Shown: positions 12,038 to 32,676 of the stretch, in pieces
How positions within the stretch are numbered: the first letter of the stretch is position 1
How the letters are laid out: every line of letters begins with the position of its first letter
Origin: Spirochaetota bacterium
GTDB lineage: Bacteria; Spirochaetota; UBA4802; JAGODF01
NCBI GenBank assembly: GCA_036846345.1
Contig: DAIUCD010000001.1
Span: forward strand, 330,363 to 394,362
DNA: 64,000 nt
Reading direction: 5' to 3'
Translations under genes and position numbers: made by a program
Notes under the pieces: model-generated
What the model was told of the DNA's origin: nothing
Databases searched by the model: none
Seen by the model: the letters and a program-made list of their open reading frames with translations, nothing else

Positions 12038-12754
12038 ATGTTAAACAGGGCAATCAAATTCCTCATCGTTTTTTTATGTCTGGAACTGTGCGAAATCGCC
12101 ATCGGTCAGTGTTTTTATTCTGTATCCCATTCGGGACTCTGGGCTGCGGGTCGTTATAAACGGGTAAAAAGCCACAATCAGGGAGTTAAGAAGGGAGAAT
12201 ACCGGATGCACCGCGTGAGGCGAGGCGAAAACCTGCATAAAATTTCGGATAAATATCATGTTTCGATAGACGAACTCTGTCGTATCAACCGAATCAAGCG
12301 GGATGAAGGCCTTGATTATGGTATGCTGTTGAAAATACCCAACAACGGGACGTTAAAACACGGGGAGGAGGCCTTCAAAAGCGGCAGTAGGCCCTACTTC
12401 CAGTGGCCCCTTCGAAAGGTGATCCATATTAAGCGGGATGGAAGAGATGGGGTAAAATCCATAGGCATCATTATAACGGGAAGGGGAGGATCGGCAGTTT
12501 ATTCCTCTGCCTCCGGCAGAGTCAAGAAGATCGGATGGATGCGGGGTTTCGGCAAGTATGTCATACTGAAACATGAGGGACGATATATAACGGTATACGC
12601 CAATATGGACCGTGTATTTGTGAAAGAGGGAGATAGTGTGGAGAAGGGGCATATGATCGGACGTATTGACGAACAGGACAATCGCCTTCATTTCCAGATC
12701 AACTGTGCGGGGAAGACACGGGATCCTCTCAATCTGCTGCCTAAAAAGAGTTAA
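12038..12754 (+). CDS. LysM + degenerate M23 (NlpD-like) protein
   Basis: LysM HRVRRGENLHKISDKYHVSIDELCRIN; M23 fold SSASGRV..GW.RGFGKYVILKH..YITVYAN..V.EGD.V.KG..IG..LHFQI. Confidence 0.9.
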   Translation: MLNRAIKFLIVFLCLELCEIAIGQCFYSVSHSGLWAAGRYKRVKSHNQGVKKGEYRMHRVRRGENLHKISDKYHVSIDELCRINRIKRDEGLDYGMLLKIPNNGTLKHGEEAFKSGSRPYFQWPLRKVIHIKRDGRDGVKSIGIIITGRGGSAVYSSASGRVKKIGWMRGFGKYVILKHEGRYITVYANMDRVFVKEGDSVEKGHMIGRIDEQDNRLHFQINCAGKTRDPLNLLPKKS

Positions 12755-15700
12755 TCGGGGTTCATGGATGGGTTGTAAAACTGATAGGTGTTGCGTCCTT
12801 TGTCCTTGGCTCTGTAAAGGGCTATATCGGCATATTTAAGCAGCGTTTCCATGTCCCGGGAGTCTGTGGGGAAAATGGCAATCCCCATGCTGGGGCTGAT
12901 GCTCAGCTGATGCGTGGAAATGGATACCGGCAGCGAGAAGGAGTGGAAGATACGCTGTATGATCTTGTAGACATCATTGAAGCTCTTGATATCGGGCAGA
13001 ATGAAGGTAAACTCGTCGCCACCAATGCGGGCCACGGTATCGATGACACGAATGTTTCCTGCAAGCTTGCGCGAGACGACCTTTAAGAGCATATCACCGA
13101 TATCATGGCCGTACGTGTCATTTACTTCCTTGAAATAATCCAGATCCAGAATCATGACCGCCACCATCTGATAATGGCGGCTGGCCTGCGCCAGAGTCTG
13201 GGTCAGGCGGTCATAAAAGAGAAGTCTGTTGGGCAGATCGGTGAGAATATCGTGATGGGCCATGTGTTTAAGGGATTGCTCCAGCCTTTTACGCTCGGTT
13301 ATATCGTGAAATATTGTAGCGAAATAGCCCTCCTGTGGGCTGTAATTGGAAACGGTATACCATCTCTCCAGCGCCTGGGAGTACTGATCCGTAAATCCTT
13401 CCATCTCCTCATTGAGCGAACTTTTTCGATAGATATCCATCAGATTCAGAAGAATATCCTGGCGGGGCCATTCCCCTGACTCCTGATCGTCCGCGGAGAT
13501 GTGGATTCCATCATCCCGGGAAAGATGCACCCCGGCATAACGGGTGTAAATCTCCGAAAACCTGCGGTTGATGAGATCCTCTTTTGTTATTCCCGTTATT
13601 TTTTCAAATGCATTATTGGCCTCGAGGCAGATGAAATCAACGGGTCCTTTCTCCTCATCGTAGAGAATTTTATGATAGGCGAAGCCGTCCTCCATGTTCA
13701 GGAAGAGATAATGGTACTTAAGCTCGGTCATCTGCAGCGCGTCCTCGGCCTTTTTTCTCTCCATCAGCTCCTGCTGTACCGATGTATAGAGGCGGGCATT
13801 ATCCATAGCGATGGAGGCGAACTGAGCGAACTGGAGCAGGAGGGCTATTTCCTCCTCATCAAAGGTTTTCCCTGACTCTGTATGAGCCAGACCAATGACG
13901 CCCATCACCCCGGATTCAGACTTCAGGGGAATGGTTATCAGGGATGCTATAGTATCCAGGTCCGCGCCGGGTATGCGGTTTTCCAGAAGCGAGTAGTTGT
14001 CGGTCGTCATCATGTGCCCCGCCTGCCATACCTTTCCGGCCAGACCCTGATGGGGATAGATCCTGTCTCCGATCCTGGCCTCGAAGATGCCCTTCCCGGC
14101 CATGGTGGCCAGATAGGATTGGCTTTCGTCAACGATACAAATGTAACCGTTGGGCGTATCCAGCAGGGTGGTGGCATAGACGACGATGGAGTTAAGCAGA
14201 TCGGAAAGCTGAAGGCGGTTCATGAGTGCAAGGTTGGTTTCATGGAGGGCCGCGAGATATTTACTGTGCTTGCGCAGCTTCTCGTCCATGCGTATTCTCT
14301 CCTGGATCTCCTGCTGCAGACGTTCATTGGCCTGTGTCAGCTCCTGTGTACGTTCCCTGACCCGGCTTTCCAGTTCATCGTGCGCCTTCTTGAGCTGGTC
14401 TTCCACGACCTTGCGGTCTGTAATATCCCGGGCATTGGCGATGATACCCTTCACTGAAGGGTTGTCCAGCAGGTTCTGAAGGATCACCTGGAACATCCTG
14501 TAGGAGCCGTCCGCATGGCGGATACGCAGCTGGCGGGATCTTCCCGCATGGGGATGGTTCACGATGTCTGTGAATACGCTTCGGGCATTATCCAGATCCT
14601 GCTCGTTTATATACCGGCAGGGTTCTTGATGAAGAAGGGATTCTGCGCCATAGCCCAGGACGCTGGTGATCGAGGGGCTGATAAAGGTCAGAGCACCCTT
14701 GGCATCGATAATGGTGATGATGTCCGTTGAGTTGGCAATGAGAGCCTTGTAATGCTCCTCCACATCCCTCAATTCCTTTTCAGACCTTTCCCGGAGTTCG
14801 ATTTCCTTGAGCAGCTGTTTCATTTGACGAATGTCCCGGCCCAGAAAGACTATGCCGATAATTTCGTCGTTTCTATCTTTGATGGCGGACATGGACATGG
14901 AGACAGGGATGAGATTCCCTGTAGTGGCCGCCTGATAATGCAGTTCGCACTGCACCTCCTGTTGAGGGTCCTGTTTGATCATGGCAATAGTCTCTAAGAT
15001 GGATTCCTTTTCCATGAAAAGGCTCTCAACGGGCCTGCCGGTGATGTCCTTCTCGTCGAAACCCAGCATGGTGGCAAGCAGAGAGTTGATCAGCATGATC
15101 CGGTTCTGGAGATCAGTCAGGATCAGGGTGTCCCGTATCTGATTGATGATCTTATCAATGGCGATGGCCGGGGTCAGAGACATGAGTCTGTAACGCGTGA
15201 TGGCAACCCATATGCCCGAGATCCATATAATCATGAGTATGGGCTCCACGAGAACAATGGAGGTGATATTCAGCAGGGGAAAGACCATATTGACCAGCAT
15301 GATGAGCAGGATGGTGGCGATACCTGAAATTACAATAAGCCGGGACTGTTTCTGCTCCATAACTCTTCTTGAGGCACGTCCCCATGCGTAAGTGAAAAAG
15401 AAACCGAGAACTGCATAGCCGAGATAATAGGTGTTGAAAAGCCAGTACCAGGCGGAATCCATTGCGACGACTTCATACCAGCCGTAGTCTGTCGGCTGAA
15501 AGTCTCTGACGAAGAGTATTCCTGTTATGGCCTGGAAGGTAAAAATTATTGCAGGGAGGTAAATCAGGGGGAGTGCCCACCGATGCTTTAAAAAGCCCTT
15601 CCGTCCCGTCAGGGCAAGAAAAAAATGAAGGAGCGAGGCCGGAAGGAAACACCATCCGGGTGAAGAAATCTTGTACCATAACCAGCAAAGCGACTTGTCC

Positions 15701-15867
15701 GGCGAGGAGTAGAAAAAAGCATAGGCTAGTGACCAGTGGCTGAGGAGGAGGGTTGTTAAAAAGAATATTCTGTTCAACCCGCGCCGTGTGTCGAGTCTCA
15801 GAACATATATCCCGACGGCCAGATAGATCAGGACTGTACTGGCAGATAGTAGAGAAAATATGCTCAT
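12751..15867 (-). CDS. Membrane diguanylate cyclase: N-terminal 7TM sensor, PAS, PAS, GAF, PAS, GGDEF
   Basis: About 7 hydrophobic helices; PAS signatures; HDILTDLPNR, LDLDYFKEVNDTYGHDIGD; RVID I-site five residues before GGDEF; ADIALYRAK..GRN. Confidence 0.93.
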   Translation of the reverse strand: MSIFSLLSASTVLIYLAVGIYVLRLDTRRGLNRIFFLTTLLLSHWSLAYAFFYSSPDKSLCWLWYKISSPGWCFLPASLLHFFLALTGRKGFLKHRWALPLIYLPAIIFTFQAITGILFVRDFQPTDYGWYEVVAMDSAWYWLFNTYYLGYAVLGFFFTYAWGRASRRVMEQKQSRLIVISGIATILLIMLVNMVFPLLNITSIVLVEPILMIIWISGIWVAITRYRLMSLTPAIAIDKIINQIRDTLILTDLQNRIMLINSLLATMLGFDEKDITGRPVESLFMEKESILETIAMIKQDPQQEVQCELHYQAATTGNLIPVSMSMSAIKDRNDEIIGIVFLGRDIRQMKQLLKEIELRERSEKELRDVEEHYKALIANSTDIITIIDAKGALTFISPSITSVLGYGAESLLHQEPCRYINEQDLDNARSVFTDIVNHPHAGRSRQLRIRHADGSYRMFQVILQNLLDNPSVKGIIANARDITDRKVVEDQLKKAHDELESRVRERTQELTQANERLQQEIQERIRMDEKLRKHSKYLAALHETNLALMNRLQLSDLLNSIVVYATTLLDTPNGYICIVDESQSYLATMAGKGIFEARIGDRIYPHQGLAGKVWQAGHMMTTDNYSLLENRIPGADLDTIASLITIPLKSESGVMGVIGLAHTESGKTFDEEEIALLLQFAQFASIAMDNARLYTSVQQELMERKKAEDALQMTELKYHYLFLNMEDGFAYHKILYDEEKGPVDFICLEANNAFEKITGITKEDLINRRFSEIYTRYAGVHLSRDDGIHISADDQESGEWPRQDILLNLMDIYRKSSLNEEMEGFTDQYSQALERWYTVSNYSPQEGYFATIFHDITERKRLEQSLKHMAHHDILTDLPNRLLFYDRLTQTLAQASRHYQMVAVMILDLDYFKEVNDTYGHDIGDMLLKVVSRKLAGNIRVIDTVARIGGDEFTFILPDIKSFNDVYKIIQRIFHSFSLPVSISTHQLSISPSMGIAIFPTDSRDMETLLKYADIALYRAKDKGRNTYQFYNPSMNPD

Positions 15868-16150: not shown

Positions 16151-16180
16151 TTGAAATACAGGTGACCGGGAATATATTAA
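16151..16180 (+). promoter_or_regulatory. Sigma70-like promoter of the AsmA-like operon
   Basis: TTGAAA at 16151-16156 with TATATT/TATTAA 16-18 nt downstream. Confidence 0.4.
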
Positions 16181-16254: not shown

Positions 16255-19155
16255 ATGAAAACTAAGGACAGGGAAAGCATTATTGCCAGGTTATTTAAGC
16301 GTAAAGCCATATCCGATAATCCCGAATCTTCGGAAGCCAGCCGGGAAAACGATTTCACCGGGAAAAAAGGAGTATCCGGCCGAAGTCTTCCGCGGCGTAT
16401 GCTGTTAAAATCCCTGAAAATCCTTTTCGTCTGGATACCGATTGTCCTGGTTGTCCTCATCCTTACGGCCCTTCTGGCGGCCTGGCTTTATCTGACGCCG
16501 GGGCGTGTGGAAAGGCTCATCGTGGAAAATTTTAAGGAGATGTCTAACGGTGATATCTCCCTGAAAGTGGACTCATTCAGCCCCTACAGCGGTTTTGTTA
16601 TGAGGGACATCGTGATACGCAACGGAGAGGAATTCGGCAGGAGCGAGTTCGTAAAAATCGAGCGCCTTGTGCTGAAATACGGTCTCTTCCCTATTCTGAT
16701 CGGCAACATCCGATTCGAGGAAATCGGCATTTACAAACCCAGAATTTACCTGGAAGAAAAAAACGGGATTTGGAACGCCGCCCGACTGATGAAACCCTCT
16801 GAAAAAAAGCCGGAAAAGAAAAAAGAGGAGAAGAAGAAAGAGGAAGAGGAGGGGCCTCCCTCCAAGGAGATCAATCTTCCTGTTTCAGTGGAATTCCTTT
16901 TCAAATTCGTCTTGGATGATCTCAGGGTCTACGCGAAAGGGTCTCAGCTCAAGTCGGCTCTGGAGGGTCTCAGCTTCGGTGTGGATATATGGATTCCTCC
17001 CTTCAAGACCATCCCCAAATCCGTTGAGGCGGTGAAACTCCTGGAACGAATGAAGATAGAGCTAAACCCCAAAGAGGAGATGGACGTGACTTTCTATTCC
17101 AGGGACGCCGACGTATCCCCGCCCCTCATCCTGACCTGGAAACTGCTTTTCAGTAAAAGCGAAAAGGGCAAGCCTCAATTTGAGAGCCGTTTGAAAATGG
17201 GAACCTACAAAACGCCGGTGCGTTTTAAAAGAAGTCATCTGGCCCCATTGAGTTTCATGGTTTCTTATGATGTCTTCTACAATCCCATCAACGATTATCT
17301 CAAACTGAATCATCTGGGAGTCAAGTTCCGCAGCCGGAAATGGCTCTACATGACCGGGGAGGTAAAGAACGTTGCCACCAAACAGGACATCTCCCTTAAA
17401 ATGACAGAAAGCGATATCGCACTCAGCGACCTGTATCCCTACTTCGTTCAGGTGACGGGCAACCGCCGGATGAAATTTGGTGGCAATATCTCCCTTTATC
17501 CCCTGACGATTCAGGGCAATATTCGGGATATTGATATCAACGGCGAACTTAACATGAGGAAAATCCATTTCCGCAACCCCGGTATCGAGGCCTCTATTCC
17601 TTCCTTCAAGCTGGGCTATCAGGTCTTCAAGCGGGGAGACAATATGAAAATCCTCTCCAAACTCAATCTGCCTCACCTCTACTATGCCATGGAGCGCAAC
17701 AAGTCCGGGGACAACGGTTTGAACCTTTCCCTGGATGTTTCCGCCTTTGAAAATTTCCGAAAAGTGGATATCAACAGCATGTCTCTGAGGTTCTATAACC
17801 CGGCAGGGGGAGGAAACGCCCTTGATCTGGGTGTGCGGGGACAGGTTTATCTCAAACCGGAACTGAACGGGAATGTAAAAATTACACGTTTCCTTTTCCG
17901 CAAGCAGCCGCTCATCGGCATGCTTCCCAAGAGTTTCCGCAAGAAACTGGCGAATATACCCCTGAAAAAGCCGGTAAGTATGAGTCTGGATACCGGTTTT
18001 GCCCTGGGAAAAAAGGTCATCAAAGCTGATCTGGGAGTCCTGATAAAGGTCCCTGATTTTGACGTCAATGACGCCGCGATCAAGGTGAGCATTGTGCAGG
18101 ACAATGCAAAAAAGCGTCTGACCATCAACAAACTCTATCTGGGCAGCCGTCAAAAAAATCTGAGCGTGACCGCTGATGGATTTCTCGATATGAAGAAGCC
18201 GCCCTTCTCCAACTCCGATCTGCGGTTGTCTGTCCTCCTGGACATCCCCAAAATGAAAACCATTTACAGCGACTGGAAGATGGCGGGAAAAATCGAATTG
18301 AAGACCCGGGTGACCGGCGACCTAAAGGATGGAAAAGCCTCCGGCACCTTCCGGATCGACCGCTTTTTTGTAAGGAATGACAAGGATAAAACCTCGGTGG
18401 AGGATCTCAACATGAAATTCCCCTTCGAGTATTATTTTACCCCCCGGTACAAGGGGGAATCCCGCATCCTTCTGGACAAGAGCAGCATCATAGACAACGC
18501 CTTCTTCAAGGAGAAGGAAAACTTTACGATTAAAAGCATAAAGGCCAAGCATCCCGCCCGGGATATTTCCTTTGAATATCTTAAGGATTTTTCCGCGACG
18601 ATGTTCTTCCGGGACAACACCTTCGAAATCGTAAAACTCAAGGCCTATGTGCTCGACGGGGCCCTTTACGGACGCGATATACTCTTCAACCTGGCCGACA
18701 TGAAGAAGCAGAATTTTGAGTATAAACTCATCCTCGATGTGACCAATGTGGACATCGGGCGGCTGGATGATCCCGATGTGTCAAAAAAGACCCGGGACGC
18801 GGAGCTTTCCCTGAATGCCAATTTTGTGGGTAAAAACCTCGATTTCAGCAAGGAATTGAACATAAAGGGGTACATCAATATCTACAAGATCGGGGATAAA
18901 TTTGCCAACCGTCTGATGACAGGGCTCAGTACGGAGAAGGGTAAATCCAAGCTGGGGATGGCCCAGTTTGCCGTAGATAATTCCCAGACGGTGAGAAGCT
19001 TCAATTTCAACCTGGACAAGGGTCTGGTGTATGCAACGGTACTATTTGTGAAGAAGGGTGTCTTCGGTTATCTTGTTGGTGTCAAGGATGAGAAAGTGGA
19101 GTTCGAAAGAATGCCGATACAGGAGTATCTCAGAAAGGTTAGGGAGGTGCAGTAA
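16255..19155 (+). CDS. AsmA/YdbH-like inner-membrane-anchored bridge protein
   Basis: Single N-terminal TM helix, then AsmA-like pattern (IRFEEIGIYKPRIYL..NG.WN), long beta-rich body, LDGALYG and LDVTNVDIGRL near the C-terminus; adjacent to DUF1318. Confidence 0.65.
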   Translation: MKTKDRESIIARLFKRKAISDNPESSEASRENDFTGKKGVSGRSLPRRMLLKSLKILFVWIPIVLVVLILTALLAAWLYLTPGRVERLIVENFKEMSNGDISLKVDSFSPYSGFVMRDIVIRNGEEFGRSEFVKIERLVLKYGLFPILIGNIRFEEIGIYKPRIYLEEKNGIWNAARLMKPSEKKPEKKKEEKKKEEEEGPPSKEINLPVSVEFLFKFVLDDLRVYAKGSQLKSALEGLSFGVDIWIPPFKTIPKSVEAVKLLERMKIELNPKEEMDVTFYSRDADVSPPLILTWKLLFSKSEKGKPQFESRLKMGTYKTPVRFKRSHLAPLSFMVSYDVFYNPINDYLKLNHLGVKFRSRKWLYMTGEVKNVATKQDISLKMTESDIALSDLYPYFVQVTGNRRMKFGGNISLYPLTIQGNIRDIDINGELNMRKIHFRNPGIEASIPSFKLGYQVFKRGDNMKILSKLNLPHLYYAMERNKSGDNGLNLSLDVSAFENFRKVDINSMSLRFYNPAGGGNALDLGVRGQVYLKPELNGNVKITRFLFRKQPLIGMLPKSFRKKLANIPLKKPVSMSLDTGFALGKKVIKADLGVLIKVPDFDVNDAAIKVSIVQDNAKKRLTINKLYLGSRQKNLSVTADGFLDMKKPPFSNSDLRLSVLLDIPKMKTIYSDWKMAGKIELKTRVTGDLKDGKASGTFRIDRFFVRNDKDKTSVEDLNMKFPFEYYFTPRYKGESRILLDKSSIIDNAFFKEKENFTIKSIKAKHPARDISFEYLKDFSATMFFRDNTFEIVKLKAYVLDGALYGRDILFNLADMKKQNFEYKLILDVTNVDIGRLDDPDVSKKTRDAELSLNANFVGKNLDFSKELNIKGYINIYKIGDKFANRLMTGLSTEKGKSKLGMAQFAVDNSQTVRSFNFNLDKGLVYATVLFVKKGVFGYLVGVKDEKVEFERMPIQEYLRKVREVQ

Positions 19156-19156
19156 T

Positions 19157-19747
19157 ATGAAATCATTGAGGCCGGTGGTTCTGATGCTTTTATTGGCGGG
19201 TGCCTGTTCCGCTATAGGGTGTGCAACGAGCGGTATCCCCAGCTGCCTGGAAATATCTCCTCCCGAAATCAGCATGACCGGGGAGAAAACGGTCATCGAG
19301 CGTCAGATCGTGGGGGATTACCGGGAGCTTGAGAAGGATGCCTGGATCATCTCCTCTGTGAAAACCAATTCCGGAAAGGGCAAGGGGATCTATGAGAAGG
19401 ACAAGGTGCTCTTCAAGGCCATGAAGATACGGGATGATCTCCGTGACCGGATACGGGTTTATAAAAAAGAGGGAGTTGTCGGTGAGGGGAATGACGGCTA
19501 CCTCAAATATATTGGTACGCCCAGGTACAGCAAGGATAAAAAGCTGAAGGGGAAACTGGATGCCGTTGTCAAGCAGGAGAATGAGGCCCGTAAAATGATC
19601 TTTGTCAGAACCCTGACAAAATCGACTGGTAAGCCATCGGAAAAGGATATAGCCGCCTTTGGTGTGAAGTTCGCTGAGGAGCAGAGGGCTGTTGCCGAAA
19701 AAAATGACTGGATTCAGGATACTTCAGGTAAATGGGAAAGAAAATAA
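19157..19747 (+). CDS. DUF1318 (YdbL-like) lipoprotein
   Basis: Lipobox-like AIGC; KKEGVVGEGNDGYL, V..EN..R..I, F..EQR......WIQ..SGKW are DUF1318-type signatures. ATG at 19157. Confidence 0.8.
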   Translation: MKSLRPVVLMLLLAGACSAIGCATSGIPSCLEISPPEISMTGEKTVIERQIVGDYRELEKDAWIISSVKTNSGKGKGIYEKDKVLFKAMKIRDDLRDRIRVYKKEGVVGEGNDGYLKYIGTPRYSKDKKLKGKLDAVVKQENEARKMIFVRTLTKSTGKPSEKDIAAFGVKFAEEQRAVAEKNDWIQDTSGKWERK

Positions 19748-22700
19748 TGAAACCGAGAACCGTAAGAAGAGCCCTCTTTGCGATTTTACTGATATCTTCC
19801 GTTTTCCTTCCCTCCTGTGAGGACAAGAGCGCCAAAGAGGTGGAGTTCAATTACAGCAAGATATTGCGGAAGGAATACAAGTACAATGTAGGAAAGGTAG
19901 TGCCGGTTACGATCGAGCAGTCTACGGAAATCGACGGGACTGTAACGGCGGATGCCGAATATCTCTATTTTTCTTCGGATCGGGACAACGGCAACTTCGA
20001 CATCTACCTGCGTTCCCTTAAGGATATTACAACGGTTAGAATAACCAGACATCCTTCCAAAGACACGGCTCCGGCCATTTCGCCAAACGGTAAATATCTT
20101 GCCTTTGTTTCGCAAAGGGAAGATCCCGAGGGGGATATCTATGTTGTAAGGGTCAAACCCAAGAAGCTTATAGCGAGTGCTGCGAAATCCATTGCCGATC
20201 TCCCCTCCCTGGACGACAAAGCACGGAATCTGACGCAGTTCCAGGATCCTGCGACCAAGACCGTCCGCATCATCAAGGACAGCTCTCCCTGCTGGTCTCC
20301 TGACGGCGACTGGATCGCCTTTTCCTCGACCCGGGGAAATGGTTTGGAGAACATATGGGTGATGGACCGAAAGGGAAACGATAAAATCCAGATCACGAAA
20401 AAAGGGGGGATGTATCCCCGTTTCTCCGAGGATGGGAAATCCATCATCTACATATCCTACACGGATAAGGGCAGCAATGGGGATGTATATATTGTCGACT
20501 TTAAAACACGGAGGGAGCGTAGAATCACCAATACGAGCGCTATCGAACTGTATCCGTCCTTTATGAAAAACAGCCACGAAATCGTCTATACCCTTATCGA
20601 CCGGGACACCAATGCGGACGGTAAGATCGATCTCAAGGACAACTCCATCCTGTACTACAGAAATCTTAAAACAGGTTTGGAATATCCCCTGACGGTGTAC
20701 TCGAGCTCCTCCTTCGGAGCCAAATGGATCCCCGCCTTTAAGTCTGTGGACAAGGAGTATGATGGAACTCTTCTTTATTCAGATATGATGGGACAGAACA
20801 TCAATATCAATATCATCCCGGAGTACGGCATCATCCCGAAAAAGCGAAATGCCCTCCAGCAGTATATGCTGGCAGAAAAATATATCAAGGAACAGGATGA
20901 CATAGAGAAGTATGTTATGTGCCTGGAACGGGTATACAGTTTCTTCGGTACCCGGAAGGATACTCAGTCCATTATTTTTGTATCCAAGGCACTTATGGAG
21001 GCAGCCAGGCTGTACCATGAATACGGTTATAAAAAGGATGCGGAACGCCTTCATAGGCTTGTTAAATCCCTTTCGCCGGAAAAGAATGACTTTAGGAATA
21101 TCGCAGGCCGTTACCTAGATAAAATCCTTTCCGGAAGATCCGGCAGTGCGGTTCTTCTGGGGGCCATCGGTGATCTTGAGAAGGATACCAAGAGGAAAGA
21201 ATTTCTCCCCTACATGATGGAACAGCTTGGGGATGATTATCTTAACAGCAAAAAAACCGCTGAGGCTCTGAAATGGTACAGAACCGTTGCTGAGAGGCAC
21301 ACGAAATTCGACCGGATCAGGTATGTAGAATACAAAATAGGCGCTCTCTCCTTCCGCAGTGTTCGGGATGAGATTCCGCAGGCCTATCTGAACGTTCTTG
21401 GTTCTGAGTTTGTTTATCTTAAGAACGATACGCTTAAAAACATCATCGATGTCTTCAGCAAAGAGAAGGATCTCAAACTTCAGATAAGGGTTGCTGATAA
21501 ACACCTTAAAAGATTCAAGGACAACAAGTATCTTCCCGGTATTCTCGAATATATTCTCGGAAACGCCTACTATCGCAGCATTGATGTCAAAAATTCCCTG
21601 GAGCATCTTCAGAAATGCCTTAAGCTTGTGAATAAATCCGATCTCACTTTCTACAAGGCCAACAGGCTATTGGGTAAGATCGCAGAAAAGATGAACAGGC
21701 CTGAGGAGATGGAGAGATATTATTACGAGCTCAGTAGTAATTATCAGCTTTACTGGCAGCAGCCCGATTTTCCCCGGGTTCTTATCAAACTTATTTCCCA
21801 CTACGAGAAGCTGGGGGAAAATCTGCGGGGAGCCGGCAGGATTGGAGATGCCGTCAGCCTCTATCAGAAATATGTGGGTATTATCACTTACGTCCATCTG
21901 TTGAAAAAGTATGAGGATATCTATAATGAATACGGTTCCCGGGCACATGTTCTCTATGTCGACACCGCTGCGGAGGGTCGCGGGAACGCCTATAACCGCC
22001 TGAAAAAACTTGAGGATAAGTATATCAAGAGGCTTCCCATTGCCAGGCTGGATTTCGACAAGGCCCATCTCTACGGTCTCGCTTATATCTACTCGAAGAT
22101 GGGGCTGACCTATGACCGGGGGCAGTCCCTGGTGGGAAATCTGAGCGGAGGTCTCGTCGCAGGAGATCTGGAGAACATGCTGAAATGCTTTTATCAGTCC
22201 GTAGAGCAGATCGATTGGGCCCTTTTTATGGACGATACCTATGTGGATCCTTATCTGCTTAAGGGATGGGTCTTCCAGTATGTAGATCTCAAGCGTAAAG
22301 AGGACCAACAAGAAACGGGAGGGAAAAAGGAAGGCGTGATCGGGGATGTGTTCCCAAAATACCTCTGGGAGAGAAACATCGGGATTTATGAAAAAGCTCT
22401 GGGCATCAACGATGAAAAAAAGTATCCGGAAGTGGAGGGCAATCTTCATCTGAACATAGGTAACACCTATTATCTTCTTTCCAATTATCCCAGGGCATTG
22501 CGTCATTATGAGGATGTGCTCAAGTACAAGCTCCATTTCAATACGGAGATCGAGGAGGCGATATATCGCTTCCATCTGGGTTTCTGCTACTGGCAGAACG
22601 ACGAGATAGAAAAGGCCCGGGATGAGATGAACAGGACATTGGGAATCTATCAGCGTCTATCCGCCAAAGAGGGGGCTTCCAAGTATAAGCTGCAGATCTA

Positions 22701-25170
22701 CTATCTGTACCGATACTTCGCTCTTTTCAGTCGTATGGAGGAGAACTATAAAGACGCCATCGCCTGGTTTCAGAAGATTCTTCAATATGCTGACAGCAAC
22801 AAGATCAAGGTGGACCGGGCCCGCTATGTTCAGGAGATCGGATACTGCTATTATGAGATGGGAGATGCTGATAGAGCCCTGGAGTATCTGGACAAGGCGG
22901 AAAAGCTTCTTAAGGACTATAAGGACGACAAGAAGACCTATAAAATGGGTTTTAAAATTTTCGGAATCGGACCTATCCGGTTTTACGATCTGGGTTCCGA
23001 CACGGCGGTTATTGGGGATAATAAGATCTATACCGAGCTGGATACTTTCAATAAAAAGCTGCTCAACCTTGCTCTCCAGGAGGTAATCAATTTCGGCAGG
23101 GGTAACTACCAAAGGGCCATCGAGTTCCTTAAAAAGAAGCTGGAACTCCTGAAAGACCGCAATGACAAGGTAAACCAGGAGGCCCGGATTAGAACCCTGA
23201 ACAATATCGGCTACTGTTATTATATGATGCATGATTATCTTCAGGCAAGGGATTATTTTACACAGGCCTGGGATTATGCGGCAAGTCCGGACGTCAATGA
23301 TCTGGGCGGCATATTCAGCACCATCATGAATATCTCCGATCTCTATGCCTTTCTCATGGATTACAAGCCTATGCTTTTAGCGGAGCCGGAGAAGAGCGTG
23401 AATACCGTCATTCAGAGGATGGTGGCCTATAAGGACAGTTATGAGAAGAATCGTTTTGTTCAGGAAAGGATCAAGCTGGAAGCCGATGCAAAGGCGAAAA
23501 AGCGCACCATAGAGGAAAAGGAGCTGAATGCCCTCAGAAAACGGATTAAAGTAAACGCGCAGAGCATCTATTACAGCATAGACATCGCTGTCGGGATATT
23601 GAAGTGTTATCACGCCGAGCAGATTTATACCCAAAAATCCGGAGGTAAAGGGCTCGATCCCACAGAGTACCATGCCTATAACAAGCAGCTCTTTGATCTG
23701 TATTCCGATGCCAGGAAACGTTTTGAAAACGCCCTGGTAGAGGCGGACAAAAAGATATCCAAGCGTCTGATGGTGAAGCTCCTTTTAAATCTGGGGACAA
23801 CTCAGAAACGGATGGGCATGATTGACGACGCCTATACGAGCTACCTGAACGCGGAAACCATCGGAAAAAACATGGCCTACGAGGACCTGAACTGGGTGGT
23901 CTATCAAAAGCTGGGCAACATTCTCAGGGAGCATGGTCAGGGACTCGAGGGATCCGGATATACGTCCCTGGCAGAGGGGTATTATCTTAAGGCCGTCCGT
24001 CTTGTAAAGACCGAGCCCTATCTTTATATGGATAAGTTTCATCAGGTTTCCGCTCTTATGGATGAGTATGCGGATTTTCTTATACACAAGGGGGCTGTGA
24101 AACGGGCGCTGGAGCAGTTGGAGTTGAAAAGCGCAATCGGCCGAGTTCAGCTGGTCATGAAGGATTTCCCTGATTTTGCAAGAGCCGAGGACAGGAAGAA
24201 TTACAAGCAGTATCGGGATATAACCCGGAGTATCAGTATTTTGAAGAGAATTCTCTCCTCGAAGCTGGAAAAGGGGGAACCCTTGAACTCGGATAAGATT
24301 AAAAAGGTTCAGAAAGATCTGGCAGGATTGCAAAACCAGTTGAAGGGTGTTGTTTCCTCATCCGGTAAGAGCAACCCCTTGTTGAGGAGTTATATCGAGG
24401 TATCGGAAAAACCTCTCAGGGGGCCCAGGGGAAGTGTTGTATATCGTTTCATGGACCAGGGGAATGATGTCTACTGCTGGGAGATCAAGGGGAGTGACAT
24501 CACACTTAACAGGGTTCCCCTGAAAGAAAACCAAAAGGGCGGGGAACGTGATGAGGCCATCAGCAGTTACCTAAAGGGAAGAGCCGGCAGGCTTGGATTG
24601 AAGATATTTATTATTCTGGATGATATGACTGTCCGGATATTCGGCAATGCTCAGAAGATGAAAGGATTTCCTCCTTTCACCTTCGCCTCCTCACTGGACA
24701 GGACCGCTTATTATGCAAGGGTTACCAGTGGCGGCCTTGATAAAATTCTCTTCAATGGAAAGGGGCTAAAAAAAGAAGCGCAATCTTCGGTCTCCCTAAA
24801 GTCCCTCTCAGTGGATGAGCTGGATATCAACAAGGCTGACCCGGCTCGCTATGCAGGATTGATAGACAGCATGCCGGATGACAGGGGTATCAATAGCGGG
24901 TGGCTCTTTAAAAAGAAGACAGCTGCAAAGATCGTCATTAAGAAGAGGGAAAAGATGGATACGGAACAGATCTGTCTCATGGCTGAGGCCTCTCTCTATA
25001 CCGGGGTGCAAACGCTTATGCTGGTGGACAATACAGAGCCTGGGAACATCATAGCCTTGCTGGAGCGTTATAGAACCCGGTCCCCTGCCGGGGCAAAGGT
25101 GCCGCCGAGAGATCGTTTTCAGGGGTACATTGCCATTGGGGTCGGGGAAGGTGGAAACCCGGAGAAGTGA
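19747..25170 (+). CDS. About 1800-aa lipoprotein: TolB/PD40 beta-propeller + TPR array + degenerate CHAT-like C-terminus
   Basis: Lipobox FLPSC; PD40 repeats (PAISPNGKYLAFVS, PCWSPDGDWIAFSS, PRFSEDGKSI); DRDTNADGKIDLKD Ca-loop; many TPRs. TAATG overlap with the upstream gene. Confidence 0.8.
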   Translation: MKPRTVRRALFAILLISSVFLPSCEDKSAKEVEFNYSKILRKEYKYNVGKVVPVTIEQSTEIDGTVTADAEYLYFSSDRDNGNFDIYLRSLKDITTVRITRHPSKDTAPAISPNGKYLAFVSQREDPEGDIYVVRVKPKKLIASAAKSIADLPSLDDKARNLTQFQDPATKTVRIIKDSSPCWSPDGDWIAFSSTRGNGLENIWVMDRKGNDKIQITKKGGMYPRFSEDGKSIIYISYTDKGSNGDVYIVDFKTRRERRITNTSAIELYPSFMKNSHEIVYTLIDRDTNADGKIDLKDNSILYYRNLKTGLEYPLTVYSSSSFGAKWIPAFKSVDKEYDGTLLYSDMMGQNININIIPEYGIIPKKRNALQQYMLAEKYIKEQDDIEKYVMCLERVYSFFGTRKDTQSIIFVSKALMEAARLYHEYGYKKDAERLHRLVKSLSPEKNDFRNIAGRYLDKILSGRSGSAVLLGAIGDLEKDTKRKEFLPYMMEQLGDDYLNSKKTAEALKWYRTVAERHTKFDRIRYVEYKIGALSFRSVRDEIPQAYLNVLGSEFVYLKNDTLKNIIDVFSKEKDLKLQIRVADKHLKRFKDNKYLPGILEYILGNAYYRSIDVKNSLEHLQKCLKLVNKSDLTFYKANRLLGKIAEKMNRPEEMERYYYELSSNYQLYWQQPDFPRVLIKLISHYEKLGENLRGAGRIGDAVSLYQKYVGIITYVHLLKKYEDIYNEYGSRAHVLYVDTAAEGRGNAYNRLKKLEDKYIKRLPIARLDFDKAHLYGLAYIYSKMGLTYDRGQSLVGNLSGGLVAGDLENMLKCFYQSVEQIDWALFMDDTYVDPYLLKGWVFQYVDLKRKEDQQETGGKKEGVIGDVFPKYLWERNIGIYEKALGINDEKKYPEVEGNLHLNIGNTYYLLSNYPRALRHYEDVLKYKLHFNTEIEEAIYRFHLGFCYWQNDEIEKARDEMNRTLGIYQRLSAKEGASKYKLQIYYLYRYFALFSRMEENYKDAIAWFQKILQYADSNKIKVDRARYVQEIGYCYYEMGDADRALEYLDKAEKLLKDYKDDKKTYKMGFKIFGIGPIRFYDLGSDTAVIGDNKIYTELDTFNKKLLNLALQEVINFGRGNYQRAIEFLKKKLELLKDRNDKVNQEARIRTLNNIGYCYYMMHDYLQARDYFTQAWDYAASPDVNDLGGIFSTIMNISDLYAFLMDYKPMLLAEPEKSVNTVIQRMVAYKDSYEKNRFVQERIKLEADAKAKKRTIEEKELNALRKRIKVNAQSIYYSIDIAVGILKCYHAEQIYTQKSGGKGLDPTEYHAYNKQLFDLYSDARKRFENALVEADKKISKRLMVKLLLNLGTTQKRMGMIDDAYTSYLNAETIGKNMAYEDLNWVVYQKLGNILREHGQGLEGSGYTSLAEGYYLKAVRLVKTEPYLYMDKFHQVSALMDEYADFLIHKGAVKRALEQLELKSAIGRVQLVMKDFPDFARAEDRKNYKQYRDITRSISILKRILSSKLEKGEPLNSDKIKKVQKDLAGLQNQLKGVVSSSGKSNPLLRSYIEVSEKPLRGPRGSVVYRFMDQGNDVYCWEIKGSDITLNRVPLKENQKGGERDEAISSYLKGRAGRLGLKIFIILDDMTVRIFGNAQKMKGFPPFTFASSLDRTAYYARVTSGGLDKILFNGKGLKKEAQSSVSLKSLSVDELDINKADPARYAGLIDSMPDDRGINSGWLFKKKTAAKIVIKKREKMDTEQICLMAEASLYTGVQTLMLVDNTEPGNIIALLERYRTRSPAGAKVPPRDRFQGYIAIGVGEGGNPEK

Positions 25171-25193: not shown

Positions 25194-26390
25194 ATGGCCC
25201 AAGAGGAAAAAATATTAGTCATCGACGATGATGAGATGGTTAACGATGTTCTCACCTTCATTCTTGAGGAGGAGTTTTCAGTCAAGAGTTATCTTAATGC
25301 CGAAGACGCTCTAAACAAGGAGGAGATAAGCAAGATCGATGTAATCATCACGGACGTCAATCTTCCCGGGATGGACGGCATAGAGTTTTTGAAAAAAGTT
25401 CATTCCGTCGATGCCAACATACCTGTAATCGTAGTAACGGGGTTCAACGATATAGATGTCGCTATCTCGGCGCTGAAAAACGGCGCTTTCGATTTTATCC
25501 TGAAGCCTTTTAAAAACGATCAGATTACCCTTTCTGTAAACAAGGCCATGGAACGGCGCCGCCTTCTCCATGAAAAAAATCGCCTTATGGAGGAACTTCA
25601 GAAGAAGAATACGGAACTGGAGATCCTCAACAAGAAGATACAGGCAAGGAACCTTGAGATAGAAAACGAACTCGACATCGCAAGCAACCTGCAGAAATGC
25701 ATTTTCCCTGTGGTGTTTCCGGAAATCCAGAAGTTTCAATTTGCCTTAAAGTTTCATCCCGTGGAAAAAATCAGCGGCGATTTTTTCGATTTCATCATCT
25801 CCGATCAGAACCATTTCGCTTTTGTCTTTGGAGATGTTTCGGGGCATGGGGTTCCGGCTGCTCTTTATTCCGCCATGGTGAAAACAGCGATCAGCACGGT
25901 CATGAAAAACACGAAATCACCTTCTCAGACCATATCGGAGATGAACAAATTCCTTATCCAGTCCCAGCGAAAAATGAGTTACAATTATGCGACGGTCTTT
26001 TACGGAGCCTTCGATCTCGAGAGGAATAAGCTCATTTACTGCAATGCAGGGATTCCCTCGCCCATCATCATCAGAGATGGCGGCGATGTGGATTTGCTGG
26101 AACCTAATGGTCCCTTTGTTGGTATATTCGACACCTCTGTCTATGAGGAAGTGGAAGTAGACATTAAACCGGGGGATAAGATCATTTTCTATACCGATGG
26201 GAGCTATGAGTGCACCAACAGTGAGGAGGAGCTCCTGGGACAAAAGAATTTCCTGGAATTCCTTTGGAGGATCAAAGCCAAGGGGATGCATGCTATAGTT
26301 ACGGATCTCTTTTCCGAGGTGGAGCTGTTTTGCGCCAATGAGCGTTATGTGGATGATATTACCATACTTGGCATGTATTATAATTCGTAG
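25194..26390 (+). CDS. Response regulator + SpoIIE/RsbU-type PP2C phosphatase
   Basis: Canonical receiver (VIDDD, ITDVNLPGMDG, FILKPF); PP2C motifs SGDFFD, GDVSGHGVPAAL, FYTDG, DDITIL. Confidence 0.93.
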   Translation: MAQEEKILVIDDDEMVNDVLTFILEEEFSVKSYLNAEDALNKEEISKIDVIITDVNLPGMDGIEFLKKVHSVDANIPVIVVTGFNDIDVAISALKNGAFDFILKPFKNDQITLSVNKAMERRRLLHEKNRLMEELQKKNTELEILNKKIQARNLEIENELDIASNLQKCIFPVVFPEIQKFQFALKFHPVEKISGDFFDFIISDQNHFAFVFGDVSGHGVPAALYSAMVKTAISTVMKNTKSPSQTISEMNKFLIQSQRKMSYNYATVFYGAFDLERNKLIYCNAGIPSPIIIRDGGDVDLLEPNGPFVGIFDTSVYEEVEVDIKPGDKIIFYTDGSYECTNSEEELLGQKNFLEFLWRIKAKGMHAIVTDLFSEVELFCANERYVDDITILGMYYNS

Positions 26391-26434
26391 TCCCGTTGAC
26401 GATCTGTAAAAGAGAGGTGGTGATCTTGCACAGG

Positions 26435-26893
26435 ATGAGAGTTTTTCTGGTACAGCATGGGGAGGCACTGGAGGAAGCCGTTAATCCTGAAAGACCTCTT
26501 TCGGAAAAGGGACTGATGCAGATGAAAAAATGCGGGGAGTTCCTGAAAAAACTGCCAACCTACCCGGCTTTGATTCTGCACAGTGATAAAAAACGTTCCC
26601 TTGAATCAGCGGAGATCATCTCCTTTGCCCTGGGCGGCATAAAAACCGAGACCCGTCCCTACATCGCTCCCAATGATGACATTGACAAGATGCTCAAGGA
26701 GATTGAAAAGCAGAATGAATCGGTTCTGATAGCCGGGCATATGCCTTTTTTAAGGAAACTCCTGGATGCACTGATAAAAAGGAAGGGGACTGAACCTGTT
26801 ATTGAGTTTTGCAACGGATCGCCTTTGATCCTTGTTCGCAGTGATAGGGGATATGTTATTGAGACATACATCAAAAATGAATTTATAAAATAA
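26435..26893 (+). CDS. sixA: Phosphohistidine phosphatase SixA
   Basis: MRVFLVQHGEA..ERPLS.KG, HSDKKRS..SA, LIAGHMP. Start could be TTG at 26426. Confidence 0.8.
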   Translation: MRVFLVQHGEALEEAVNPERPLSEKGLMQMKKCGEFLKKLPTYPALILHSDKKRSLESAEIISFALGGIKTETRPYIAPNDDIDKMLKEIEKQNESVLIAGHMPFLRKLLDALIKRKGTEPVIEFCNGSPLILVRSDRGYVIETYIKNEFIK

Positions 26894-26926
26894 AAAAAAC
26901 TGATCCTGGAAGATCAGCTTTTTTTT
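26893..26926. terminator. Bidirectional intrinsic terminator
   Basis: A-tract, CTGATC-CTGGAA-GATCAG, T-tract between convergent sixA and thiolase. Confidence 0.65.
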
Positions 26927-32326: not shown

Positions 32327-32676
32327 TGGAGACGGCGGGAGTCGAACCCGCGTCCTACAACACACCCCTATGGCCTCTACATGCTTATCTCATTCCTTTG
32401 GTTTTAAGCCCCTCGACCGGGAATGAGAACCGTTCTCAGGGCCTGGTTCCCTTTGGTTTCGCTCATGTTCCGGGAACAGGAACCTTGGCTATCCTCTGTA
32501 TTTTACGCCTTCAGGCACCCCAGAGGAGCAAGCCTCCTGAAGACGCCAGCCGCTTTTAAGCAGCTAGTGCAAATTCGTTGTTTGCGTTTAATTTAGTTCC
32601 GCCATTTTTTACGAGATGACGGCGCTCGACATGCCACCATAGACGCATCATTGCAGTCGAAACCTGGATCGTCCCC
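32327..32676 (-). ncRNA. ssrA: tmRNA (SsrA), tag peptide ANNEFALAA
   Basis: 5' GGGGACG pairs with 3' CGTCTCC-A with a G3.U wobble; T-arm GCGGG-TTCGACT-CCCGC; tag reading frame GCA AAC AAC GAA TTT GCA CTA GCT GCT TAA at 32585-32556; terminal CCA not encoded. Confidence 0.97.

Follow-up and report, generated by a model that had tools for sequence, protein, structure and literature searches.

In the window (i.e., the whole stretch of 64,000 nucleotides of Spirochaetota DNA that was analysed), three consecutive genes encode an AsmA-like protein, a lipoprotein with a YdbL (DUF1318) domain and a giant PD40-TPR protein, a gene set which seems to be a hitherto undescribed form of the outer-membrane lipid bridge built in E. 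coli from YdbH, YnbE and YdbL. It is reasonably likely that the locus is a spirochaete version of this YdbH-type intermembrane bridge, with the N-terminal extension of the second protein acting as the cap. The route by which phospholipids travel to the outer membrane has yet to be settled, and YdbH-YnbE-YdbL belongs to the small number of systems for which an outer-membrane partner has been defined. The absence of YnbE from 401 sampled Spirochaetota genomes, together with a YdbL that is always lipid-anchored behind a conserved motif, amounts to a natural experiment on two points: what is the minimal outer-membrane cap that an AsmA-like bridge needs, and what is the YdbL fold for?

Operon layout and synteny

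Gene 1 (16255-19155, + strand; 966 aa) ends with the stop codon TAA at 19153-19155 and is parted by a single spacer base, 19156, from gene 2 (19157-19747, + strand; 196 aa), which extends from the ATG at 19157-19159 to the TAA at 19745-19747. Gene 3 (19747-25170, + strand; 1807 aa) starts with the ATG at 19747-19749 and shares bases with the stop codon of gene 2, giving a TAATG overlap at 19747. These coordinates agree with the three genes, the 1-nt gap and the TAATG overlap described in a previous sequence-only reading of this DNA. An alternative in-frame start of gene 3 is found upstream, at the ATG in 19732, and would give a product of 1812 aa.

A candidate sigma-70-like promoter (TTGAAA-16-TATATT, 16151..16178, + strand), which is a consensus match only (10/12 positions), lies ~77 nt 5' of gene 1, inside the 387-nt spacer that parts this gene from a divergent GGDEF gene. 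On the other side, a receiver-PP2C (SpoIIE-type) phosphatase gene (25194..26390, + strand; Pfam Response_reg and SpoIIE) begins 23 nt past the end of gene 3, and it is followed by a SixA-like histidine phosphatase gene (26396..26893, + strand; Pfam His_Phos_1), the final one ahead of a bidirectional hairpin/terminator-like element (26892..26925). This element, which marks the end of the five-gene unit, consists of CTGATCCTGGAAGATCAG followed by T9 on the + strand and of a 15-pair stem on the - strand. Judging from these signals and spacings, genes 1-3 and the receiver-PP2C and SixA-like genes probably form one predicted transcript.

The conservation of the arrangement was assessed in 60 related loci from named genome assemblies, in 17 representative regions of other lineages (the L numbers below denote individual loci) and, for individual families, in the 401 genomes of the phylum survey. 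Genes 1, 2 and 3 follow one another in this order in 60/60 related loci where the contig reaches far enough, so the arrangement is not due to chance, and the stop and start codons of gene 2 and the giant gene usually overlap or abut across loci. Leptospira-type genomes share the order as well, and gene 1 of one of them (L101) scores 1446 bits against the NCBIfam family LIC_11026_fam. The synteny across Spirochaetota, which the earlier reading had named as a check, is thus borne out, with the giant gene following gene 2 in all 60 loci with sufficient contig. As for the phosphatase genes, a receiver-PP2C orthologue is located 3' of the giant gene in ~13/60 related loci and in L113, L114, L115 and L117, and SixA-like homologues are encoded ~2-3 kb or less from the module in L113, L114 and L117.

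An AsmA-like protein without a YdbH-family signal

The product of gene 1 passes the cut-off of LIC_11026_fam (NF047499; 346.5 bits vs 325), and a DUF748 match at residues 63-194 (E 2.7e-6, 26 bits) stays under the gathering score of 50. Among 39 homologues, DUF748 (PF05359) is detected in 28 and AsmA (PF05170) in 24, with a best E of 7.5e-14. The AF2 model (mean pLDDT 83.3) consists of a membrane helix at residues 45-79, covering the hydrophobic stretch ILFVWIPIVLVVLILTALLAAWLYL, and then ~45 long consecutive beta strands; the remainder being beta, the helix is predicted to be the single, N-terminal anchor. When this model was compared with the PDB using Foldseek, the top match, and the only one at E<=1e-3, was 9cap_A (LPD-3/BLTP1; E 1.2e-4). 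The TM-scores between the two reach only 0.10-0.13, which is very low but in line with the length and flexibility of such rods, and they share no sequence similarity; nor did the gene 1 profile find any match when searched by sequence in the PDB. On the basis of its modelled fold, gene 1 is predicted to be an AsmA-like, inner-membrane-anchored protein of the repeating-beta-groove type. The AsmA-like character assigned to it in the sequence-only reading is therefore supported, and the groove expected there made probable, by the family matches, the AF2 model and the similarity to LPD-3/BLTP1. The YdbH likeness also claimed there is not detectable, since PF11739 (YdbH) is found in 0/39 homologues at E<=1 and the alignment of the family profile with E. 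coli YdbH by hhalign reaches a Prob of 0.4%, and orthology with YdbH is rejected on the same grounds.

Family membership suggests that gene 1 may transport lipids. Could the module serve protein traffic instead, in a TamB-like role in the assembly or secretion of outer-membrane proteins or surface lipoproteins, the substrate being handled by the giant protein? TamB, which acts together with TamA to assemble proteins, is itself AsmA-like, a weak local match to TamB is seen in gene 1 (NF047952, E 0.0023), and no match to Pfam TamB is found elsewhere in this genome. Moreover, the TPR and PD40 domains present in the giant are typical binders of peptides or proteins. TamB and TamL are discussed in PMC12045153. 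Against this possibility, the Pfam scan of the operon genes reveals no Omp85/TamA-like gene, the best fold match of gene 1 is a lipid-transfer bridge, and DUF1318/YdbL has so far been linked specifically to the YdbH-YnbE lipid bridge (PMC11126948). We regard a role in protein traffic as very improbable.

In the bridge that we favour, gene 1 would be held in the inner membrane by its N-terminal helix, while the beta-groove rod would reach into the periplasm. Its most conserved region is the C-terminal 216 residues, which would be the part contacted by the lipoprotein encoded by gene 2.

A lipid-anchored YdbL protein and its conserved extension

The gene 2 protein is composed, in this order, of a signal peptide with a lipobox (AIGC, with Cys22, and/or IPSC, with Cys30), a conserved N-terminal extension, a variable linker and a YdbL (DUF1318) domain. 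The latter (residues 79-196; 19391..19744, + strand) is modelled by AF2 with pLDDT >92, and DUF1318 (PF07027) is matched at residues 100-196 (40.6 bits vs a cut-off of 27). Foldseek retrieves 28oj, the crystal structure of E. coli YdbL (E 4.6e-4, prob 1.00, TM 0.78), with an rmsd of 2.6 A over 97 columns, so that, as modelled, gene 2 carries a true YdbL fold. In addition, its R145 is invariant and equivalent to R61 of YdbL, a YnbE-contact residue (bioRxiv 10.64898/2026.03.16.712125). Unlike the soluble, periplasmic YdbL type of ~90 mature residues, the gene 2 product carries a lipobox Cys and, ahead of the domain, an extension of 50 residues, which brings it to ~170 mature residues. DUF1318 occurs in 100/401 Spirochaetota genomes, each with a single copy, and every copy has the long form (frames of 178-318 aa).

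The lipid-proximal conserved extension (residues 22-73; 19220..19375, + strand) follows the pattern C..PSC.EI.PP.I.[LM]TGEKTVIERQIVGDYRELEKDAW..SSVKT, and the peptide SPPEISMTGEKTVIERQIVGDY corresponds to residues 34-55. Residues ~30-70 are the best-conserved part of the protein, with a commonest-residue fraction of 0.82 over residues 31-70 vs 0.62 over the DUF1318 domain. The AF2 monomer shows pLDDT <50 at residues 23-78, within which residues 47-69 form a low-confidence helix that is undocked from the YdbL domain and contains the acidic segment DYRELEKDAW. When a profile built on the extension was run against 1.84 billion representatives, it recovered 132 cluster representatives, nearly all of them of 180-250 aa and with the same architecture. 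The DUF1318 protein with a lipidated N-terminal extension that had been read from the sequence is hence corroborated by the lipobox, the conservation of the extension and the YdbL fold (TM 0.78).

The SSV[KR]T junction was also considered as a cleavage site of the neighbouring CHAT protease, for which no support was obtained: L107, L111, L113 and L115, although they possess the giant gene, show Q, E or M at the position of the basic residue, the motif is kept in genomes lacking that gene, and it is present in the window too, where the giant has no CHAT end.

The absence of a separate ynbE, already claimed from the sequence, holds for this genome and for 401/401 sampled Spirochaetota genomes. 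PF13617 (YnbE) has no match at the locus or across the whole 4.8-Mb genome, even at E<=10, and no lipoprotein-like small ORF is present in the 387-nt upstream spacer or between the genes; in the phylum survey, PF13617 was detected in 0/401 genomes. The same reading had proposed the extension as a fused YnbE equivalent, which can stand as a functional analogy, no homology being detected. PF13617 was found in 0/40 gene 2 members at E<=10, and hhalign comparison of the extension with the enterobacterial YnbE profile gave a Prob of 0.1%, or <=0.3% when both sides were broadened (a 237-sequence extension profile, and a YnbE set widened with sequences from Photobacterium, Proteus, Pseudomonas and Azospirillum). 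Neither was any canonical YnbE found among the matches of the extension profile from the 1.84 billion representatives. A likeness perceived by eye (INLN..IEHEI vs INLTG..IERQI) had no statistical support in these alignments (<=0.3%). Homology between the extension and YnbE is consequently not supported by the Pfam scan of the 40 members or by either hhalign run, and the term "YnbE equivalent" can be used in a functional sense only: the extension may be a functional analogue of YnbE. On its own, YnbE is likewise predicted to be disordered, and it takes on strand form only in contact with YdbH (PMC11126948). The extension has a low pLDDT as a monomer, as is the case with YnbE, and the lipobox together with this low pLDDT fits a segment resembling YnbE, a small outer-membrane lipoprotein that augments the C-terminal beta-sheet of its AsmA-like partner.

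Since both the extension and the C-terminus of gene 1 are highly conserved and the extension is not confidently folded alone, we infer that the former docks on the latter, probably through beta-strand augmentation plus the acidic helix. Docking would occur at the outer-membrane side, the putative location of the gene 2 protein, and the extension would do the job of the separate E. coli YnbE while remaining tethered to its own YdbL domain.

Alternatively, gene 2 could encode merely a membrane-tethered chaperone of the YdbL type, whose extension occupies the pocket of the protein's own YdbL domain in cis, or contacts some other client, instead of forming an outer-membrane cap; gene 1, the giant or an unlinked protein would then be what touches the outer membrane. 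The C-terminal helix of YnbE fills a basic pocket of YdbL (bioRxiv 10.64898/2026.03.16.712125), and DYRELEKDAW is acidic like that helix, which is compatible with binding in cis, as are the lack of YnbE homology in the extension and the helix, rather than strand, that AF2 gives at residues 47-69. Besides, gene 2 and the giant persist in L107 without an adjacent gene 1. However, the extension is more conserved (0.82) than the domain that it would have to regulate, and, beginning 4 residues from the conserved Cys (C-x4-PP), it would lie at the surface of the membrane. Furthermore, genes 1 and 2 are what is retained as a pair where the giant is missing, and the 401 sampled genomes offer no other YnbE-like candidate in the phylum. 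We hold the tethered chaperone to be an unlikely explanation, and the cap remains the reading that we follow below.

The giant lipoprotein as a probable accessory partner

Gene 3 has a lipobox, LPSC, with Cys24, and its product is a probable lipoprotein. It contains four PD40 repeats (97.7 bits) and several TPR families, arranged as a PD40 beta-propeller at residues ~70-350 and, after it, an extended TPR/helical solenoid, with a C-terminal part that has no assigned fold. The TolB-type identity given to it in the sequence-only reading was not sustained, as TIGR02800, which spans an N-terminal TolA-binding domain as well, reaches 89.5 bits vs a cut-off of 343 and the match is confined to the PD40 blades. 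Gene 3 is instead a short form within a family of 2400-2700-aa proteins: its sequence runs collinear with that of the 2698-aa L117 protein over the first ~1800 residues of the latter (42% identity), and its own C-terminal 368 residues align solely to the middle of the long forms. These end in a match to CHAT (PF12770; in L008, 32.9 bits vs a cut-off of 24), within a C-terminal module of ~800 residues that is missing from the window giant and its 8 closest relatives. PF12770 has no match in the window giant, whether in the whole protein or in its last 507 residues scanned by themselves. Its C-terminal 368 residues may be a degenerate copy of the CHAT module, for which the profile signals are weak and inconsistent (Prob 45% and 19%) and neither the PDB nor Pfam gives support. 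Even in the long forms, whose CHAT consensus keeps the conserved His, "PS" is found at the position expected for the catalytic Cys, so that protease activity of the module appears doubtful from its sequence.

The giant gene is missing beside the gene 1/gene 2 pair in 5/17 representative regions (L104, L106, L108, L109 and L110), and in L106 its place is occupied by an NHL beta-propeller protein of 775 aa. Since genes 1 and 2 are maintained without gene 3 in several lineages, the latter is not a core subunit and would be a lineage-variable accessory partner. Its earlier description as an extra partner of the bridge is thereby retained in part: the synteny with the pair (60/60 loci and Leptospira) agrees with it, and the losses restrict it to an accessory role. 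Most likely, gene 3 would provide a periplasmic scaffold or regulator of the bridge.

Is the giant a physical partner at all? It might instead act on its own in the envelope, as a scaffold or sensor that has no more than a promoter in common with the bridge, for instance within a signalling unit with the receiver-PP2C and SixA-like genes. Such independence would account for the five regions without it, for a length (1362, about 1800 or 2400-2700 aa) and C-terminus that vary, and for the receiver-PP2C gene that comes next in ~13/60 loci and four further lineages. Nevertheless, the giant lies directly 3' of gene 2 in 60/60 loci (contig permitting) and in Leptospira, usually with overlapping or abutting codons, the gene 2 - giant pair is kept in L107 without an adjacent gene 1, and in L106 it is another beta-propeller protein that substitutes for it. 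These observations make an independent giant rather unlikely.

A more elaborate version of the favoured bridge would combine three elements: a self-chaperoned cap, in which the YdbL domain of gene 2 holds the aggregation-prone, lipid-proximal strand/helix motif in cis until it is docked on the C-terminus of the LIC_11026 rod at the outer membrane; the giant PD40-TPR protein as a dedicated assembly or gating scaffold in the periplasm; and control by the co-transcribed receiver-PP2C and SixA-like proteins. Taken jointly, these elements make a speculative proposal with a low probability of being right in full. If true, it would represent a regulated three-part bridge machine, extending from uncultured spirochaetes to Leptospira and arisen independently of YnbE. 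More generally, the repeated occurrence of a giant PD40-TPR(-CHAT) protein beside the pair suggests that assembly or control may have an added layer, missing in E. coli.

Comparison with known systems

The module is present in Leptospira, alongside the uncharacterised LIC_11026 family, which makes the saprophyte L. biflexa a genetic system for it. LIC_11026_fam is a hypothetical equivalog from Leptospira, for which no described function or literature was found; gene 1 passes its cut-off as a distant member (346 bits vs 1446 for the Leptospira-type orthologue, ~26% identity).

Among other bridge-like proteins, the eukaryotic lipid-transfer protein LPD-3/BLTP1 (PDB 9cap), TamB and YhdP have an N-terminal membrane anchor, as gene 1 does, and a long repeating-beta-groove rod, as is predicted for gene 1, but gene 1 differs in having no TamA-type partner and no DUF490. 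The giant periplasmic proteins of the TPR-CHAT or PD40-TPR-CHAT type encoded beside AsmA-like genes in relatives are matched by the window giant over their first ~1800 residues, without the CHAT end.

The closest comparison is that with the ydbH-ynbE-ydbL operon of E. coli (PMC11126948; bioRxiv 10.64898/2026.03.16.712125). Both loci encode an inner-membrane-anchored AsmA-like protein of comparable length (966 aa here vs 879 aa for YdbH), with a beta-groove that is a predicted one in gene 1, followed in the operon by a gene with the DUF1318/YdbL fold; in each, a lipidated partner bears a short conserved stretch that is not folded on its own, and docking is likely to take place at the conserved C-terminus of the bridge protein. 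Unlike YdbH, however, gene 1 belongs to the LIC_11026 family and shows no PF11739 signal; a separate YnbE was not found in the 401 sampled Spirochaetota genomes, and the spirochaete YdbL domain is lipid-anchored behind a 50-residue extension, with a giant PD40-TPR lipoprotein and two phosphatase genes attached to the spirochaete version.

The operon and its neighbourhood across Spirochaetota

The envelope operon comprises gene 1 (16255-19155, + strand, 966 aa), gene 2 (19157-19747, +, 196 aa), which starts one base past the TAA of gene 1, and gene 3, the giant (19747-25170, +, 1807 aa), whose ATG shares a TAATG overlap with the TAA of gene 2. The 1-nt gap and the overlap described in the sequence-only reading are confirmed by the ORF listing and by direct reading of the sequence, and the peptide quoted there corresponds to gene 2 residues 34-55. 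A promoter-like site lies upstream of gene 1 (16151-16178), while the earliest convincing terminator-like hairpin on the + strand (26892-26925) is found past two more closely spaced genes, encoding a receiver-PP2C phosphatase (25194-26390) and a SixA-like histidine phosphatase (26396-26893), so that the predicted transcription unit looks like one of five genes. The receiver-PP2C gene comes next after the giant in about 13 of 60 related loci. Upstream, a divergent gene (12751-15867, -) encodes a 1038-aa 7TM-PAS-GAF-GGDEF diguanylate cyclase, and GGDEF-domain genes also occur near the module in two other spirochaete loci (L116 and L108); a tmRNA gene (32327-32676, -; tag peptide ANNEFALAA, ARAGORN) is present further downstream.

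The nearest relatives are uncultured Spirochaetota MAGs. The giant proved to be syntenic with the pair formed by genes 1 and 2: the three-gene order is kept in 60/60 loci from named assemblies, wherever the contig extends far enough. Of 17 regions sampled from the phylum's other families, 14 have genes 1 and 2 side by side and 12 have the giant after gene 2. In the Leptospira-type locus L101, for instance, gene 1, a full-length match to LIC_11026_fam at 1446 bits, precedes the genes for a 200-aa DUF1318-like lipoprotein and a 2612-aa PD40-TPR protein. L107:1-5594 carries gene 2 and the giant together, with nothing homologous to gene 1 ahead of them, and the ORFs that follow are all on the + strand. 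In the five regions that lack the giant, the place after gene 2 is taken by a methyltransferase-like gene (L104), an NHL-repeat beta-propeller protein of 775 aa that weakly matches Por_Secre_tail (L106, 7801-10128, -), a convergent class-I aminoacyl-tRNA synthetase gene (L108, where gene 1 is not adjacent either), a Ser/Thr kinase-STAND protein (L109) or ComEC (L110); in the L106 lineage, a different propeller protein thus occupies the giant's position. The giant is, in consequence, an accessory partner and not a universal one.

An AsmA-like rod outside the YdbH family

Gene 1 had been proposed to encode an AsmA/YdbH-like bridge, of which the AsmA-like half stands and the YdbH half does not. 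The protein passes the curated cut-off of the NCBIfam LIC_11026_fam (346.5 bits against 325) and its N-terminus matches DUF748 below threshold; among 39 homologues (36-64% identity), 28 match DUF748, 24 match AsmA and none matches YdbH, and the family profile gives no alignment with E. coli YdbH (Prob 0.4%). The AlphaFold2 model, with the homologue alignment as input (mean pLDDT 83.3), consists of a membrane helix (residues 45-79) and some 45 long beta strands, and in the PDB only LPD-3/BLTP1 (9cap_A, E 1.2e-4), a bridge-like lipid-transfer protein, matches it at E<=1e-3, followed by ApoB100 and LptD. On these family and fold matches, gene 1 is filed as an inner-membrane-anchored, AsmA-like rod of the LIC_11026 family, with a putative repeating beta groove. 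Conservation peaks in its last ~216 residues (0.68-0.78, versus 0.46-0.60 mid-protein). The protein has no cysteines, and a Lys/Glu-rich low-complexity insert (PSEKKPEKKKEEKKKEEEEGPPSKE; residues 181-203, window 16795-16863; pLDDT <50) breaks the rod.

Elsewhere in the same genome (about 94% complete), AsmA-family matches at C9:49865-50527, C6:177755-179476 and C44:17659-18069 of G000 (L121-L124) mark at least three more AsmA-like ORFs, in frames of 497, 733 and 775 aa; the genome has no Pfam TamB/DUF490 match. In the literature only work on E. coli was found, with nothing on LIC_11026 or on AsmA-like proteins in Leptospira.

The giant lipoprotein

The giant is a conserved accessory lipoprotein (lipobox LPSC, PLAC in relatives) whose four PD40 repeats fall roughly within residues 70-350; many TPR matches lie between about 490 and 1180, and domain scans recognise nothing past ~1180. 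Its propeller had been called TolB, a name that must be reduced to the PD40 repeats (89.5 bits against a TolB cut-off of 343). Relatives of 2400-2700 aa are collinear with it over their first ~1800 residues (42% identity for that of L117) and carry another ~800, at the end of which Pfam detects CHAT (in the long form L008, residues 2543-2606, 32.9 bits against a cut-off of 24); this module is missing in the window's giant and its eight closest relatives. CHAT proteases use a catalytic Cys. The long-form consensus (alignment A6, C-terminal 430 residues of 14 giants) shows an invariant His (G..HL) and a conserved LY.PS at the position of that Cys, and, judging from this alignment, the long forms may end in pseudo-proteases or in Ser-using enzymes. 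The last 368 residues of the window's giant may be a degenerate duplicate of the module, for which profile comparisons gave weak and discordant signals (Prob 45% and 19%). Cleavage of gene 2 at SSV[KR] by the giant's protease found no support: several giant-bearing genomes have Q, E or M in place of the basic residue, and genomes without the giant, or with a giant that lacks the CHAT end, keep the motif.

Gene 2 and the YnbE question

The claim of a DUF1318 lipoprotein holds. Gene 2 has a signal peptide with a lipobox Cys (AIGC, Cys22) and, in residues 100-196, an above-threshold Pfam DUF1318 match, and residues 79-196 (AF2 pLDDT >92) match E. coli YdbL, whose crystal structure has recently been released (28oj; prob 1.00, TM 0.78, rmsd 2.6 A, 24% identity). 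The arginine matching YdbL R61, one of the residues that shift when the C-terminal helix of YnbE binds (bioRxiv 10.64898/2026.03.16.712125), is invariant. On DUF1318, the literature offered nothing beyond one incidental mention.

Ahead of this domain, a second Cys (PSC/IPSC, Cys30, conserved in >=90% of members) precedes the motif EI.PP.I.[LM]TGEKTVIERQIVGDYRELEKDAW..SSVKT and a variable linker. No other part of the protein is as well conserved as this motif, where the commonest-residue fraction is 0.82 (domain 0.62, linker 0.43). A Cys lies exactly four residues ahead of the PP in all sub-families, which would place the motif on the membrane surface, and in Leptospira-type proteins it is the only Cys. 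For this reason, of the two candidate lipidation sites (window 19220-19258, residues 22-34), Cys30 may be the acylated one instead of Cys22, or else may have another role. A stand-alone 59-aa lipoprotein, P0490 (...GGCIIIVKPPKFNIVGKRTIIERQMIGAYRDIKND...; L118:1041-1220), matches the extension profile (E 1.9e-4) and may represent the extension in free form; its type occurs in three metagenome samples (L118, L119, L120), with no DUF1318 domain, an LpxK-like gene (VVAIGNITVGGNGKTP) directly downstream and a receiver-HATPase_c_2 gene upstream.

Is the extension a fused YnbE, as had been suggested? Homology is not demonstrable, since the YnbE family PF13617 matches 0/40 gene 2 members even at E<=10, hhalign against the enterobacterial YnbE profile aligned only IERQI with IEHEI (Prob 0.1%), and broadening both profiles (237 extension segments; Photobacterium, Proteus, Pseudomonas and Azospirillum sequences from chromid/plasmid records added to the YnbE set) gave a Prob of 0.3%. 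Among 1.84 billion cluster representatives, the extension profile found 132 proteins, nearly all of 180-250 aa with the extension-plus-DUF1318 layout, and no canonical YnbE. The remaining case is a functional one, from distribution. The expected lack of a separate ynbE was borne out: none of 401 evenly sampled Spirochaetota genomes has PF13617, and the window's genes have no small lipoprotein-like ORF next to them. DUF1318 is present in 100 of the 401 (46/153 genera), in all 100 as a single-copy, long-form open frame of 178-318 aa. A YnbE-equivalent role for the extension is slightly short of an even bet.

Taken together, the rod would carry lipids, as its family membership and fold match suggest, and the lipid-proximal motif of gene 2 would dock at the outer membrane on the rod's conserved C-terminus, replacing YnbE while still tethered to its own chaperone domain, with the giant scaffolding or regulating assembly. 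We regard this picture as somewhat probable; whether the giant touches the bridge directly is evenly balanced. In the E. coli YdbH-YnbE-YdbL bridge, YnbE is predicted to be disordered alone and to form a strand only once stacked on the YdbH C-terminus (PMC11126948). Like YnbE as reported there, the extension combines strong conservation with no confident monomer fold (pLDDT <50 in the motif), and it resembles YnbE in general layout too: in both, a lipid Cys is followed after a few residues by a proline, then by an alternating pattern of beta type and an acidic helix.
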